Shown piece after piece: positions 37,155 through 63,364 of a stretch of DNA of 63,612 nt (position 1 is the first letter of the stretch; each line of letters begins with the position of its first letter). The position numbers and the translations under genes are program-made. Origin of the DNA: an uncultured Bacilli bacterium (GTDB lineage: Bacteria > Bacillota_I > Bacilli_A > RF39 > UBA660); assembly GCA_944358815.1 (NCBI GenBank), contig CALVRX010000022.1, positions 1 to 63,612 on the forward strand, written 5' to 3'. The notes beneath the pieces were generated by a model. The model worked only from the letters and a program-made list of their open reading frames with translations. It did no database searches and was not told where the DNA came from.

Positions 37155-37296
37155 TCTTTTTTTAGCAATTTATGTTTTGTACATAATGTTGATTTTATGT
37201 TTTGTCATATATTTAACGACTCTTCACCGTGATAGCATCCGCCGAAATTTCGATCACTATCATCCTCGTCAACCTTTGTTTGGTTCTGGCGCTAGG
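37155..37296 (-). ncRNA. glmS: glmS ribozyme (GlcN6P-dependent self-cleaving riboswitch)
   Basis: The minus strand reads AGCGCCAGAAC...GGTTGACGAGGATGATAGTGATCGAAATTTCGGCGGATGCTATCACGG, matching the conserved core (A|GCGCCAGAAC, GACGAGG, AUCGAAAUUUCGGCGGAUGC). Boundaries are approximate. Confidence 0.9.
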
Positions 37297-37337
37297 ATTA
37301 GATGATGACCTCCTTTTGTTATCTATCCTTTGTTATT

Positions 37338-42194: not shown

Positions 42195-42416
42195 TGAAAT
42201 TTGAAAAGCGAAGATTAAGAAGTAGTAGTAAAAGTAATTATTAATAGAGAGCTAACGGTTGGTGGAAGGTAGCAATAATCTTTTATGAATTCACCTTATG
42301 AGCTATATGTTTAATGACATATCGGTAACGCGTTATAGTTTTTGAGGTAAGCAATTGCTTATAAATTAAGGTGGTACCACGTATTAATCACGTCCTTATT
42401 GGATGTGATTTTTTTT
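42195..42416 (+). promoter_or_regulatory. T-box riboswitch leader, Phe (UUC) specifier, controlling pheST
   Basis: AGAGAG and GGTTGGTGGAA stem I elements, specifier UUC at 42290-42292 followed by A, and the T-box AATTAAGGTGGTACCACG (42364-42381). Terminator AATCACGTCC-ttatt-GGATGTGATT followed by T8. Confidence 0.9.
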
Positions 42417-46128: not shown

Positions 46129-46202
46129 GGGTCTATAGCCAAGTGGTAAGGCGTGGGACTGCAACTCCCTGATCGTTGGTTCAAATCCGACTAGGCCCTC
46201 CA
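46129..46202 (+). tRNA. tRNA-Cys (GCA)
   Basis: Folded by hand: acceptor GGGTCTA/TAGGCCC (one G.U), 3-bp D stem, anticodon loop CTGCAAC, T arm GTTGG-TTCAAAT-CCGAC, discriminator U73, encoded CCA. Confidence 0.9.
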
Positions 46203-59610: not shown

Positions 59611-59682
59611 GCTAGTTTTGTTTATTTTTTTGACTTAAAGTGAGTGTATAGATGATAAAATAGTAATGGAGGATTGATTGAT

Positions 59683-60198
59683 ATGTTGTTTGAAAAAGAT
59701 TATAAAGGTAAAAAAAGTTTAATTATTTATTTTAGTAGAGCAGATGAAAATTATGGAGTTGGCTTTATTAGTAAAGGTAATACGGAAGTTATTGCAGAAG
59801 ATATTAAGGAGTTCACAGGGGCGGATATATTTAAAGTGGAGCCAGCTATACCTTATGCGAGTGATTATAATACTTGCATTAATGAAGCTAGGGAAAGACA
59901 AGTTAGTCATAATGCTCCTATTAAAGAAAAGGTTCCAGATATTTCTAGTTATGAGGTTATTTATATTGGAAGTCCTGTTTACTGTGGTGATATGCCAGAA
60001 GAGTTAGTTACAGCTTTGAAAGATATTAATTTTACTGGTAAGATTATTAGACCTTTTGTTACTCATGAGGGCTCTGGACTTGCAAATATACCAAGTCAGA
60101 TTAAAGCGGTTTGCAAGGGAGCAGAAGTAACTGATGGACTTGCTATTAAAGGATCTTTAGTAAATAGTTCTAAAGATAAAGTAGAGAAATGGATTTAG
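59683..60198 (+). CDS. Flavodoxin family protein
   Basis: KKSLIIYFSRADENYG..GNTEVIAEDI..GSPVY pattern of the Flavodoxin_4-type family. GGAGGA SD. Confidence 0.75.
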   Translation: MLFEKDYKGKKSLIIYFSRADENYGVGFISKGNTEVIAEDIKEFTGADIFKVEPAIPYASDYNTCINEARERQVSHNAPIKEKVPDISSYEVIYIGSPVYCGDMPEELVTALKDINFTGKIIRPFVTHEGSGLANIPSQIKAVCKGAEVTDGLAIKGSLVNSSKDKVEKWI

Positions 60199-60209
60199 TA
60201 TAAAAAAAC

Positions 60210-60240
60210 CAATAAAGATAATTCTTTATTGATTTTTATT
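60210..60240 (+). terminator. Intrinsic terminator after the flavodoxin gene
   Basis: CAATAAAG-ataatt-CTTTATTG hairpin followed by aTTTTTaTT. Confidence 0.7.
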
Positions 60241-60248
60241 ACAAAATA

Positions 60249-60277
60249 TTGCGTTTTATATAACTATTCGTTATATT
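60249..60277 (+). promoter_or_regulatory. Candidate promoter of toxin-like mRNA 1
   Basis: TTGCGT, 17 nt, TATATT. The predicted TSS (about 60285) lies just before the conserved AAGGAATGTTCAAT 5' box. Confidence 0.55.
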
Positions 60278-60343
60278 TATATATAAGGAATGTTCAATAG
60301 TTGGACGCTACCAATTCGATACAAAGAATTGGAGGTGATGCTT

Positions 60344-60421
60344 ATGACTCAAAGAGAAAAAGCTCTTTACTTCATAATCTCACTTCTATTTATTATAGTA
60401 TTCATTTTGCTTTTTAAATAG
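60344..60421 (+). CDS. 25-aa hydrophobic peptide, candidate type I toxin (MTQREKALYFIISLLFIIVFILLFK)
   Basis: GGAGG SD 8 nt upstream of the ATG. The peptide has a polar head, a single hydrophobic helix and a terminal Lys. It sits in a duplicated unit with a convergent antisense promoter. Too short for the ORF track. Confidence 0.6.
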   Translation: MTQREKALYFIISLLFIIVFILLFK

Positions 60422-60534
60422 AAAACAGCGTCTAACTCATCATCGATGATTTAGACGCTCCACAAGTTAATCGGTAGCGTTCAACAATCGAGAATTGAAC
60501 GTTCCTTTTTTATTTTATGAGATTTCTCTCATCT
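60418..60534 (-). ncRNA. Candidate cis-antisense RNA 1 (antitoxin-like), about 115 nt, complementary to the 3' UTR and stop codon of ORF 1
   Basis: Bounded by the minus-strand promoter (60541-60569) and a minus-strand terminator (AGCGTCTAA..TTAGACGCT, 60427-60459, then gUUUUcUaUUU). Ends are predicted, not measured. Confidence 0.55.
60478..60511 (+). terminator. Intrinsic terminator of toxin-like mRNA 1
   Basis: CGTTCAA-caatcgagaa-TTGAACG hairpin followed by ttccTTTTTT. Confidence 0.75.
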
Positions 60535-60540
60535 ATATAC

Positions 60541-60569
60541 ATTCTATCATATATTTAACTTTAAGGCAA
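60541..60569 (-). promoter_or_regulatory. Near-consensus promoter of antisense RNA 1
   Basis: On the minus strand: TTGCCT, 17 nt, TAGAAT with a TGa extended -10. Confidence 0.7.
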
Positions 60570-60576
60570 AGATTTT

Positions 60577-60606
60577 ATTACATTTTCTATAACTATTCGT
60601 TATACT
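60577..60606 (+). promoter_or_regulatory. Candidate promoter of toxin-like mRNA 2
   Basis: -10 TATACT in the same conserved block as unit 1. The -35 is weak (ATTACA at 18 nt, or TTACAT at 17 nt). Confidence 0.45.
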
Positions 60607-60671
60607 TATGTATAAGGAATGTTCAATAGTTGGGTGATTGCCGAGCTTCTATTTAGAAGGGAGGCGGTATA

Positions 60672-60755
60672 ATGAGTAAGAAGGATTGTTTAATCTTATC
60701 TTTAATCGTTATTATCTTCTTTCTGTTATTGTTATTATTTATAATTTTAATATAA
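60672..60755 (+). CDS. 27-aa hydrophobic peptide, candidate type I toxin (MSKKDCLILSLIVIIFFLLLLLFIILI)
   Basis: GGGAGG SD 7 nt upstream of the ATG. Same architecture and position as ORF 1 in the second repeat unit. Confidence 0.6.
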   Translation: MSKKDCLILSLIVIIFFLLLLLFIILI

Positions 60756-60865
60756 AAAAAAATTACCTAACTCATCTACAATGATTTAGGTGCACCACAC
60801 AAATTGGTCGCATTCAACATTGGCAATTGAATGTTCCTTTTTATTTTATGAGAAATTTCTCATCT
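60752..60865 (-). ncRNA. Candidate cis-antisense RNA 2 (antitoxin-like), about 115 nt
   Basis: Minus-strand promoter at 60872-60900. Minus-strand terminator ACCTAA..TTAGGT (60765-60791) followed by aaUUUUUUUUU. Complementary to the ORF 2 3' UTR and stop codon. Confidence 0.55.
60811..60846 (+). terminator. Intrinsic terminator of toxin-like mRNA 2
   Basis: CATTCAA-cattggcaa-TTGAATG hairpin followed by ttccTTTTTaTTTT. The stem differs from unit 1 by a compensatory G-C to A-U change. Confidence 0.75.
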
Positions 60866-60871
60866 ATATAC

Positions 60872-60900
60872 ATTTTAACATATTTTTAACTTTAAGACAA
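60872..60900 (-). promoter_or_regulatory. Near-consensus promoter of antisense RNA 2
   Basis: On the minus strand: TTGTCT, 17 nt, TAAAAT with a TGt extended -10. Confidence 0.7.
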
Positions 60901-60922
60901 TTCTTTGTTTTATACTTTGTAA

Positions 60923-61147
60923 CTATTTTTTGAAGAGTTTTTTAGGTTTATTTAGATCTGTTTCTGTAATAACATGTTTATCATCAATTGGTATACCATC
61001 TATTATAGCTCTATAGTCAGGTTTTAACTTTTTCTTAATTTTGCTTTCGATTATTTCAGTAATAACTTCAGGCTCTAATTCAATGAATTTTTCGTATGGT
61101 ATTCCAAATTTTTCTTCTATAGATTGTTTTAATGTTTCTAAAGACAT
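60923..61147 (-). CDS. Hypothetical small protein (74 aa, acidic N-terminus / basic C-terminus)
   Basis: AAGGAAAGAAAG SD-like stretch upstream. No motif recognised. Confidence 0.45.
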   Translation of the reverse strand: MSLETLKQSIEEKFGIPYEKFIELEPEVITEIIESKIKKKLKPDYRAIIDGIPIDDKHVITETDLNKPKKLFKK

Positions 61148-61287
61148 AAACTTTCTTTCCTTTCTTGGTTATTATAACATGGATAACTTGAATTGTGAAT
61201 ATTTTAAAATTAAAATATTAATATTTTATAGGTAATTTGATGGTTAAATGATATAATGAATTTGAAAAGGCAATTTGGAGGTTTTAG

Positions 61288-61476
61288 ATGAAAAAATTAA
61301 AATTTGGTGTATCTTTAGTTGTTTTAGGTAATATTTTATATTTAGCTTATATTTTTTTGGCAGGTGATGGTAGTTCATTTGGAGAGTTTACTTCTGGTTT
61401 ATTACTTGGACTTTCTATTGGCATTAGTTTGGTAGGTATTATTATGCTTATTATTTATGCTTCTAAAGAAAGATAA
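61288..61476 (+). CDS. Small two-TM membrane protein (62 aa)
   Basis: GGAGG SD and two hydrophobic helices. Confidence 0.5.
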   Translation: MKKLKFGVSLVVLGNILYLAYIFLAGDGSSFGEFTSGLLLGLSIGISLVGIIMLIIYASKER

Positions 61477-61492
61477 TTAAAAGGTGGTTAGT

Positions 61493-62029
61493 ATGAGTGA
61501 TATAGAAATTATAAAACTTACTTTTGGAATATTTTTAAGTGTGTTTGGATTAGTACTTATCTTTTTAGCTTTTTTGCTATTTTATAAATATTTAGTGCAG
61601 GAAAAAAGATGTATTTCTAAAGTAAAAGGAATTATTAAAAGGTATAGTATTGCAGAATATGGTGGTGTGCATTTACCTATTGTCTATTATATGGTAGATG
61701 GTAAAGAATATAAGGTTAAAGGCCCAGAATATAAATGGATTATTACTAAAACAAAAAGTAGTCCTACTAGTAAAAATAAAGTAGATTATGAAGTTGATGG
61801 TCAAAGTTTAATTATCAACTGCGAGGTTAATTCTATTGTTTCAGTTTATAAAAATCCGCTTTATGATATGTATCCACTTAATTCAGAGATTGATGTTTTC
61901 TATGATCCAAATAATCCAAAACTAGCTTATGTTTTAAGATACTGTGATAAAAAGTTTTGTTTTTGGCTTATGTTTATTTCTGGTATTGTTATATTAATTA
62001 TAGATATTCTTATTTTAATTTGTTTATAG
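61493..62029 (+). CDS. DUF3592 family membrane protein
   Basis: TM, then a beta-rich core (..VHLPIVYYMVDGKEYKV....IDVFYDPNNPKLAYV), then a TM. This layout is typical of DUF3592. Confidence 0.65.
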   Translation: MSDIEIIKLTFGIFLSVFGLVLIFLAFLLFYKYLVQEKRCISKVKGIIKRYSIAEYGGVHLPIVYYMVDGKEYKVKGPEYKWIITKTKSSPTSKNKVDYEVDGQSLIINCEVNSIVSVYKNPLYDMYPLNSEIDVFYDPNNPKLAYVLRYCDKKFCFWLMFISGIVILIIDILILICL

Positions 62030-62050
62030 AATTTAATAGATGAAGTTTTT

Positions 62051-63364
62051 ATGGGTAAAAAAGTTAATTTATTTTCTAGTGTTTTCTTATATGTAATAGC
62101 TAGTTTAGTATTGATATTTTATTTTATCGTTGGTTTAAATAGTCAGATTACGGAAATAGCTAGAGTTGTTTTCTTAGGAATAAGTGCGTTATTTTTATAT
62201 TTTGGTGGTTTTTTACTATCAAAATATTTAGATAGTAAGAAACCTTTAAAGATTAATTTATATATTTTCTTTATTTTATATTTAATTTTACTAATTACAC
62301 TTACTTTGTTTGATAGTTTATGGCTTCGAAATGGTTTTAGTTTTGCTGGCTTTAATAATATAAGTGAGAGAGTTAATTTAATTCCTTTTAAGACAATTAT
62401 GATGTTTATAAGTCAGTTTGATAGTATGTATTCCACGAGCCAGATTATGTTTAATTTATTTGGCAATGTTTTGGCTTTTATGCCGATGGCTTTCTTTTTA
62501 CCACTTTTATTTAAAAGGCAAAATAAGTTTAAATGGTTTTTACTTACGGTAACTTTAATAATTCTTGGCACTGAATTTTTACAACTAATTACTGGTAGTG
62601 GCAGGTGTGATATTGATGATTTGATTTTGAATTTAACCGGAAGTGTTTTACTATATTTTCTTTTAAAGATTAAATCGGTTAATAATTTAATTCGTAATAT
62701 ATTTTTACTTGAGGAAAATAAAATAAGTAAAAAATCTTATATAAAAATTATTTTATTTATAATAGGTGTTATAGCTTTATTTATGGGCATTATTGTTTAT
62801 AGAAATAGTTTATATAATAAAAATTATGAGGAGTATAATAAGATTAACAATCCTGATATAACTTTTGAATATGATAAAAAATGTACAAATAATAATTTGT
62901 TTTACGAGGATGATATTTATCAGTATTATTTTAAATGCTTAGATAGCAGTAAATTTAAAGTGATAGTGAATGGGAAAGATGAGTTTTCGGTAAAAGATTT
63001 ACTTGATAATTCAAAATATAATTATGATATAGATAGACTGTTAGATAATTTTGATTATAGTGATATTGGATATGAAATAAAACATAAGTATATTTATTTT
63101 GATATTGAGCTTGAAAATAATTTAAGTAATAGTTACTATGTTACAAATGTGGTTGATGGGAATATTGCAAGTCTTTATTTAGTAGATAAGACTGATGGAA
63201 ATAAACTTAAATACGAAGTTAATATAATACCTAAGAAAAGTGGCAAGGAGGTTTTTAATATAGATTTTGAGTTTACAAGTCCTAAAGGAAAGGTTAAAAT
63301 GGTAACTAAAAAAGTTAGTGTGACAGTTGATGATGATTTAAAAGTTACATATAGTTTAGATTAA
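62051..63364 (+). CDS. VanZ family membrane protein fused to a ~200-aa C-terminal extracytoplasmic domain
   Basis: VanZ core (NLIPFKT.., LFGNVLAFMPMAFFLP, ..EFLQLITGSGRCDIDDLILNLTG), an extra TM, and an unrecognised beta-rich domain. Confidence 0.7.
   Translation: MGKKVNLFSSVFLYVIASLVLIFYFIVGLNSQITEIARVVFLGISALFLYFGGFLLSKYLDSKKPLKINLYIFFILYLILLITLTLFDSLWLRNGFSFAGFNNISERVNLIPFKTIMMFISQFDSMYSTSQIMFNLFGNVLAFMPMAFFLPLLFKRQNKFKWFLLTVTLIILGTEFLQLITGSGRCDIDDLILNLTGSVLLYFLLKIKSVNNLIRNIFLLEENKISKKSYIKIILFIIGVIALFMGIIVYRNSLYNKNYEEYNKINNPDITFEYDKKCTNNNLFYEDDIYQYYFKCLDSSKFKVIVNGKDEFSVKDLLDNSKYNYDIDRLLDNFDYSDIGYEIKHKYIYFDIELENNLSNSYYVTNVVDGNIASLYLVDKTDGNKLKYEVNIIPKKSGKEVFNIDFEFTSPKGKVKMVTKKVSVTVDDDLKVTYSLD

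Follow-up and report, generated by a model that had tools for sequence, protein, structure and literature searches.

The stretch of DNA analysed here, hereafter the window, comprises 63,612 nucleotides (nt) from an uncultured Bacilli bacterium of the order RF39 (assembly GCA_944358815.1, contig CALVRX010000022.1, forward strand). Positions 60249-60900 of the window are occupied by two units of about 330 bp arranged in tandem, which are 83% identical to each other; their open reading frames (ORFs) have diverged and their non-coding parts are near-identical. Each unit exhibits, in this order, a sense promoter, a 5' box at the start of the sense transcript (generic form AAGGAATGTTCAATAGTTGG), a hairpin containing the Shine-Dalgarno (SD) sequence, a tiny ORF, a hairpin in the 3' untranslated region (UTR), a segment and a 3' box (generic form ATTGAAYGTTCC), both pairing with the 5' end, a T-run, a small hairpin and a promoter on the minus strand. 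We propose that each unit is a chromosomal type I toxin-antitoxin-like module, with a probability of roughly 0.7. The features of the two units are as follows, where aa stands for amino acids and SL for stem-loop.

60249-60277, plus strand: sense promoter of unit 1, read from the sequence (TTGCGT at 60249-60254, 17-nt spacer, TATATT at 60272-60277).
60285-60512, plus strand: predicted toxin-like mRNA of unit 1, about 228 nt (fold of -80.3 kcal/mol, z = -10.4).
60331-60335, plus strand: SD sequence of unit 1, GGAGG, inside a local hairpin (median unpaired probability of 0.07 in 18 homologues).
60344-60421, plus strand: ORF of unit 1, 25 aa (MTQREKALYFIISLLFIIVFILLFK), a type A peptide, with its TAG stop codon at 60419-60421 (from translation and homologues).
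60416-60534, minus strand: predicted antisense RNA 1, about 118 nt, comprising SL1 (60517-60532), SL2 (60479-60500), SL3 and a U-tract over the stop codon.
60427-60459, minus strand: SL3, the terminator hairpin of antisense RNA 1, which on the plus strand is the hairpin of the mRNA 3' UTR (three covarying pairs).
60541-60569, minus strand: antisense promoter 1 (TTGCCT at 60564-60569, 17-nt spacer, TGaTAGAAT with the -10 hexamer at 60541-60546).
60578-60606, plus strand: sense promoter of unit 2 (TTACAT-17-TATACT, or alternatively ATTACA-18-TATACT).
60614-60843, plus strand: predicted toxin-like mRNA of unit 2 (fold z = -5.6, and alignments).
60672-60755, plus strand: ORF of unit 2, 27 aa (MSKKDCLILSLIVIIFFLLLLLFIILI), a type B peptide, with its TAA stop codon at 60753-60755 (from translation and homologues).
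60751-60865, minus strand: predicted antisense RNA 2, about 115 nt, comprising SL1 (60848-60863), SL2 and a terminator hairpin (60765-60791).
60872-60900, minus strand: antisense promoter 2 (TTGTCT at 60895-60900, 17-nt spacer, TGtTAAAAT with the -10 hexamer at 60872-60877).

On the plus strand, a TTGnnn-17-TATAMT promoter is found at the equivalent position of homologous units, its -10 element ending 7-9 nt before the 5' box. In unit 1, a helix is formed by the 5' box AAGGAATGTTCAAT and the 3' box ATTGAACGTTCC (60494-60505), with the T-run directly after the latter; in unit 2, the corresponding partners are the 5' box at 60614 and the 3' box at 60826-60837, again with a T-run after the latter. 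Both sense folds are more stable than those of shuffled sequences (z-scores above), and their closing helices correspond to the 5' and 3' ends of the transcripts. A GGAGG motif lies 8-9 nt upstream of both ORFs, and the stem of the local hairpin that buries it covaries across homologues. No local intrinsic terminator was detected for the sense mRNAs in a consensus scan of 60494-60517 and 60826-60847. The sense U-run abuts the 3' box, i.e. the segment pairing with the transcript's own 5' end, and this closing 5'-3' helix may itself be the stem of the sense terminator. The variable 4-5 nt that follow GTTGG in the 5' UTR covary with two partners, a 3' segment and the 5' arm of the 3'-UTR hairpin (60300-60312, 60427-60436 and 60473-60485 in the window, and the homologues), which would allow an alternative, possibly co-transcriptional, fold of the mRNA.

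On the minus strand, SL3 of unit 1 has 15-nt arms that are 93% complementary in an inverted-repeat search, and the tail of antisense RNA 1, GUUUUCUAUUU, extends to 60416 across the TAG stop codon. In unit 2, the terminator hairpin is followed by AA and nine U up to the TAA stop codon. The sequence-only reading had assigned to each unit a minus-strand promoter, a terminator hairpin and a U-rich tail reaching the stop codon, and all of these motifs are present at the positions that it gave for both units. Profiles built with nhmmer match 60534-60411 for antisense RNA 1 and 60865-60748 for antisense RNA 2, and the two minus-strand RNAs fold into three stem-loops (z = -4.6 for unit 1 and -3.6 for unit 2). 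In a consensus scan, both window antisense promoters show 9 of 12 hexamer matches plus the TG motif. The same scan of the locus did not call the terminators, whose stems contain fewer than three G-C pairs or a bulge. Between the 3' end of the mRNA and the stop codon, a stretch of ~90 nt, the antisense RNA matches the mRNA with perfect complementarity, so that the overlap covers only the 3' UTR and the final one to four codons. The A-rich C-terminal lysine codons and the context of the stop codon double as the U-tract of the antisense terminator.

Homologous units were collected in three ways. A scan of a genome collection with the 5' box gave 28 loci, 17 of which carry the family, in uncultured Bacilli with genomes of 1.3-1.5 Mb, Candidatus Coprosoma and Firmicutes bacterium CAG:822. 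Candidatus Coprosoma corresponds to the GTDB genus CAG-822, in the family CAG-822 of the order RF39 (PMC8035907). Ten matches (L001-L004, L006, L007, L009, L016, L017 and L028) were discarded as chance matches in unrelated taxa of higher GC content, and L015 was discarded as it shows no feature of the family. The nhmmer profiles revealed more copies, including tandem arrays of up to three units, for about 30 units in RF39/CAG-822-type genomes. Diverged subtypes came from a metagenome scan in which the 5' and 3' boxes were the sole requirement; several of the contigs are labelled human gut and others are of unrecorded origin. In total, 45 distinct full-length units were obtained. These relatives were chosen by sense-strand features alone, and conservation on the minus strand is thus an independent test of the antisense gene.

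For this test, promoters were scored by their hexamer matches plus the TG motif, with a cut-off of at least 10, in an 85-nt region examined on both strands. A minus-strand sigma-70 promoter reaching the cut-off is found in 44 of the 45 units, compared with none of the 45 on the plus strand and 83 of 900 shuffled sequences. The spacing between the antisense -10 element and the 3' box takes one of two fixed values, 26-30 nt or 6-7 nt. The mean score across the family is 10.7 for the antisense promoters versus 9.3 for the sense promoters, and the corresponding scores in the window are 10 versus 8 and 10 versus 9, in agreement with the earlier claim that the antisense promoters are the closer to consensus. 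The units encoding types C and D of the peptide exhibit different promoters (TTGCTA or TTGAAA-17-TATAAT, TTGCAC-17-TGtTATAAT and TTGATA-17-TATAAT) within the same architecture; in these units, SL1, the 5' hairpin, is missing or swapped for a hairpin of another sequence, with TTGnnn-17-TATAAT still in place. At least five U within the 10 nt after the hairpin past the stop codon are present on the minus side in 42/45 units and on the plus side in 2/45. Conservation between units begins at the sense -35 box and stops at the antisense -35 box.

The folds of the two strands can also be told apart. The consensus antisense structure comprises 24 pairs, seven of which show compensatory changes, and all three stem-loops covary. 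Within the alignment, 99.5% of the antisense cells are paired, versus 93.4% after column shuffling (0 of 500 shuffles reach the observed value) and 31-42% in slid controls. When SL2 is read as minus-strand RNA, all 136 cells pair, 30 of them as G·U, whereas only 106 of the 136 pair as plus-strand RNA. The opposite holds for the long-range helices of the mRNA, for which 396 of 396 cells pair on the plus strand (including 47 G·U) versus 349 for the minus-strand reading. The same DNA thus carries two selected folds, one for each strand. Covariation is also seen in SL1 (GAGA/TCTC to GAAG/CTTC), which sits downstream of the sense T-run, outside the sense transcript; this fits only with a minus-strand transcript. 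Taken as a whole, the proposal of convergent antisense genes that overlap the 3' UTR and stop codon of each ORF is supported at the level of architecture: as belongs to the type I class, the units hold a predicted antisense gene that has a promoter and a terminator of its own and whose RNA is complementary to the putative toxin mRNA.

The second component of that class, a hydrophobic peptide ORF of less than 60 aa with a ribosome-binding site, is present as well, and its length and hydrophobic pattern are kept in the 45 units. Four types of peptides are observed: type A with 25 aa, types B and C with 27 aa, and type D with 30 aa. The length of type A is constant in 12 distinct homologues. More generally, ORF length is constant within each type, with no indels, in contrast to the indel-rich 3' UTR. 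The homologues show the least change at the second codon position and keep the hydrophobic class of the residues, a pattern of coding constraint. The peptides appear to be single-helix membrane peptides, for which a role as toxins is presumed.

The window units occupy a syntenic site (59674-63364), in which a flavodoxin gene is followed by the units, orf62, a DUF3592 gene and a VanZ gene. At this site, the number and type of units vary by species, with a single type A unit in L021, a single type B unit in each of L008 and L065, and several units in L022 and L066. L026 is also among the loci with this site. Directly downstream of unit 2, a 74-aa ORF devoid of a Pfam match (60923-61147, minus strand) is not present in the otherwise syntenic L021. 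No copies of the units were found in viral contigs, where three scans gave chance matches only and nhmmer profiles of both RNAs gave none, or among plasmids and phages, for which blastn in distant-homology mode gave no match.

Natural variants were found among the homologues. Three truncated or rearranged units (L020:3320-3700 and L022:5730-6120 on the minus strand, and L011:560-980 on the plus strand) have lost the toxin promoter and 5' UTR, whereas the antisense half and its promoter have been kept. Of these, two directly follow the C-terminus of a gene which, from inspection by eye, we take to encode a YafQ/RelE-like type II toxin. The sole full-length unit that lacks the antisense promoter (L013:825-1060, plus strand) has a degenerate sense -35 box too. 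The truncated units and the L013 unit are consistent with the logic of a toxin-antitoxin module. Furthermore, the unit at L018:4595-4363 (minus strand) has a mutated sense -10 box (CAAACT), and no sense promoter was detected for the unit at L068:7349-7122 (minus strand). The L013, L018 and L068 units may be silenced copies.

On this basis, the following mechanism can be envisaged. A moderate sense promoter would produce an mRNA of ~230 nt for a single-helix membrane peptide of 25-27 aa, the presumed toxin. The exact 5' end of this mRNA would pair with its 3' end, closing the molecule, and the ribosome-binding site would be buried in the local hairpin. As a consequence of this closure and of the buried ribosome-binding site, the mRNA is expected to be stable and poorly translated. 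The stronger, extended -10 promoter located just past the 3' end of the mRNA would yield an antisense RNA of ~115 nt composed of a 5' hairpin, a middle hairpin and a terminator. First contact would probably take place between the 7-8-nt loop of antisense SL2 and its unpaired counterpart, an internal loop of the mRNA. These two elements have predicted single-stranded probabilities of 0.88 and 0.86, and their sequence differs between paralogous units; according to this modelling, they are a plausible site of nucleation and specificity. Pairing would then extend to a full duplex of ~90 bp with the 3' region of the mRNA, displacing the 5' end of the mRNA from its 3' end. By analogy with known systems, RNase III would then have a long double-stranded RNA to act upon and 5'-dependent RNases an exposed 5' end, so that the toxin mRNA would be destroyed.

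The modelling provides some indication of where control may be exerted. When the antisense target is blocked in silico, the predicted unpaired probability of the mRNA 5' end rises from 0.05 to 0.15-0.88. The SD sequence stays closed under the same conditions in this thermodynamic model, and it is still not opened when the mRNA is trimmed to the 3'-UTR hairpin. With the accessibility of the SD sequence unchanged, any control must act on mRNA stability or by a route outside the model. A translational switch was dropped as the leading idea, as neither antisense binding nor 3' trimming gave a consistent change at the SD sequence, and the model favours a mechanism based on stability. Duplex formation that triggers decay of the mRNA, after the examples of RatA, SR4, SR5 and SR6, is the most likely mode of action by analogy. 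Pairing outside the overlap in the manner of Fst and SprA1 was rejected, the duplexes between the antisense RNA and the 5' part of the mRNA not being above shuffles with RNAduplex (median z = -1.1). We also considered a two-part mechanism that is undescribed for other 3'-overlapping type I systems, in which the 5' end of the mRNA forms the terminating and sealing stem with the U-run, and the antisense RNA perfectly mimics this 5' end and unzips the mRNA by strand displacement, thereby exposing the 5' end to RNase J/Y-type decay instead of merely creating an RNase III substrate. The variable loop/internal-loop pair would, in this mechanism, provide the specificity for several paralogous units to coexist in one small genome. 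We regard this two-part mechanism as speculative and rather unlikely. The sequence-only reading had further described an unstable antitoxin RNA set against a stable toxin mRNA, with cleavage by RNase III. Both ideas are analogies, and the 5'-terminal hairpin and strong terminator of the antisense RNA do not suggest instability.

Among known type I systems, the 3'-overlap geometry of Gram-positive bacteria is found in TxpA/RatA, BsrE-G-H, YonT, Fst and SprA1 (PMC8594479). RatA, SR4, SR5 and SR6 base-pair with their toxin mRNAs at the 3' end and recruit RNase III, and the ribosome-binding sites of txpA, bsrG and bsrE are sequestered (PMC6562991). The likeness to RatA/txpA and SR4/bsrG that had been put forward for the window units holds for the geometry, with the differences that the ORF overlap is smaller and the peptides are unrelated. 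With TxpA/RatA of the Bacillus subtilis skin element, the RF39 units share convergent RNAs that would pair at their 3' ends and an antitoxin with its own promoter and terminator (PMC6562991; PMC8594479), as well as the sequestered ribosome-binding site of the toxin and an antitoxin thought to act via mRNA decay (PMC6562991). In contrast, TxpA comprises 59 aa and is unrelated in sequence to the RF39 peptides of 25-30 aa, the RF39 overlap covers less of the ORF than in TxpA/RatA and BsrG/SR4, the RF39 mRNA is predicted to be closed by a helix between its two ends, and the RF39 units are not prophage-borne.

The group comprising BsrG/SR4 of the B. subtilis prophage SPβ, BsrE/SR5 and YonT/SR6 similarly shows a 3'-end overlap, a multi-stem-loop antisense RNA whose loops contact the mRNA first, and an SD sequence buried in few G-C pairs (PMC6562991, PMC3834814). 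However, SR4 binding tightens the SD helix, whereas the accessibility of the RF39 SD sequence is unchanged in the thermodynamic simulation, and the RF39 peptides are unrelated to those of this group, shorter, and found in another host lineage. Fst/RNAII (par) and SprA1/SprA1as resemble the RF39 units in their 3'-side antisense overlap sparing most of the ORF (PMC8594479) and in their very small hydrophobic toxin. They differ by a functional pairing located outside the overlap, at the 5' region, which did not emerge for the RF39 RNAs, and the RF39 peptides have no homology to Fst or PepA1. With regard to hok/Sok and AapA1/IsoA1, the toxin mRNA is likewise locked in an inert form by 5'-3' pairing with its SD sequence sequestered (PMC6733600 for aapA1), but those antitoxins bind the 5' region of the processed mRNA, whereas the RF39 antisense RNA would target the 3' partner of the closing helix. 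Moreover, the RF39 units have no leader ORF and reside in a Gram-positive-type host.

Database searches did not connect the units with any of these families. Pfam and NCBIfam searches with eight peptides gave nothing significant, the best match being HokA with E = 0.27 and 11 bits versus a cutoff of 89. Rfam searches, at gathering thresholds and at E<=10, gave nothing in the locus beyond chance matches to tsr24 (E = 6.4) and SNORD50 (E = 7.1). The match to tsr24, a small RNA of Staphylococcus aureus, at 60290-60431 on the plus strand (13.7 bits) was accordingly judged to be due to chance; in the tsr24 model, too, the 5' and 3' ends are joined by a helix. Neither a peptide match in Pfam or NCBIfam nor an Rfam match relates the units to TxpA/RatA or BsrG/SR4, and a literature search returned no paper in which type I toxins are connected with RF39, CAG-822 or Coprosoma. 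The RF39 units are a new family with a known 3'-overlap geometry, outside the TxpA/RatA and BsrG/SR4 families.

Three other explanations of the units were considered, each of which is less likely than a type I module. The first is that the units encode a non-toxic small membrane protein, for instance a modulator of membrane proteins, the level of which is tuned by the antisense RNA, rather than an addiction or toxin module. Such a gene would have an anatomy identical to that of a toxin-antitoxin module, and it would suit the conserved chromosomal site beside membrane-protein genes (orf62, DUF3592 and VanZ) in several species, the lack of phage or plasmid copies in the searches above, and an SD sequence that is never predicted to open. 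It is nevertheless unlikely in view of the several copies per genome, often in tandem and with mixed peptide types, the variation of copy number at the same site, the decayed copies that retain the antisense half, and the location of some copies next to what we presume, by eye, to be a type II toxin gene. The several layers of silencing, namely a closed mRNA, a buried SD sequence and a stronger antisense promoter, also argue for a toxin, as heavy multi-layer silencing is typical of type I toxin loci (PMC6562991).

The second explanation dispenses with a minus-strand gene: the block after the T-run would be a 3' extension of the sense RNA produced by read-through, and the hairpin after the stop codon a stabiliser of this RNA. 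In its favour, no canonical local terminator was detected for the sense RNA, and the pairing of SL1 and SL3 is as good on one strand as on the other. SL2, however, is intact on the minus strand only, and U-tracts follow the hairpin on the minus side only. The hexamers, the 17-nt spacing and the TG motif are kept even where the surroundings and SL1 have been replaced, and the plus strand of the same block carries no promoter or terminator signal, which makes a sense-only transcript very unlikely. The third explanation, a miniature inverted-repeat transposable element (MITE) or repeat DNA with the boxes as terminal inverted repeats and the promoters and ORF as incidental features, is scarcely credible and was rejected on account of the strand-specific G·U pairs (47 of the 396 mRNA helix cells are valid only as plus-strand RNA and 30 of the 136 SL2 cells only as minus-strand RNA), an ORF of constant length with a coding substitution pattern, a syntenic site instead of scattered insertions, conservation that runs past the inverted repeats to both -35 boxes and ends there, and the fact that no target-site duplications were seen, despite the 14-28-nt inverted repeats that flank a ~200-bp core and the multiple copies in tandem arrays.

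Several observations weigh against the type I module. Taken in a single sequence, the promoter and terminator signals are real, yet not statistically distinctive: in this AT-rich region, 13 promoter sites were found versus 12.8 expected from shuffles, which is not significant. The U-tracts of the type A antisense RNAs are interrupted (UUUUCUAUUU). Part of the conservation reflects recent common ancestry, many of the units being closely related. We infer the transcription of either strand from the sequence, in hosts that are uncultured, and the toxicity of the 25-27-aa peptides is assumed from their composition alone. The closed SD sequence in the simulations and the absence of homologues among the known families of type I toxins and antitoxins in Rfam, Pfam and NCBIfam point in the same direction.

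Elsewhere in the window, the sole Rfam and ARAGORN matches are a T-box leader (42202-42400, plus strand), a glmS ribozyme (37157-37304, minus strand) and a tRNA-Cys (46129-46202, plus strand). This set fits a low-GC Firmicute chromosome.

Most known type I families stem from cultured Proteobacteria and Firmicutes (PMC8594479, PMC12390103). The RF39 family does not overturn the current understanding of these systems. It adds to them a well-supported family that has four subtypes of peptides and is present in several copies per genome, in the uncultured gut lineage RF39/CAG-822, which has genomes of 1.3-1.5 Mb and almost no known RNA biology. With 25 aa, the shortest of its peptides are among the shortest candidate toxins, and the modules could become compact orthogonal RNA regulatory parts. 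As both strands encode conserved RNA folds over the same bases, the family offers a clean natural case for the study of overlapping structural constraints and of antisense recognition.

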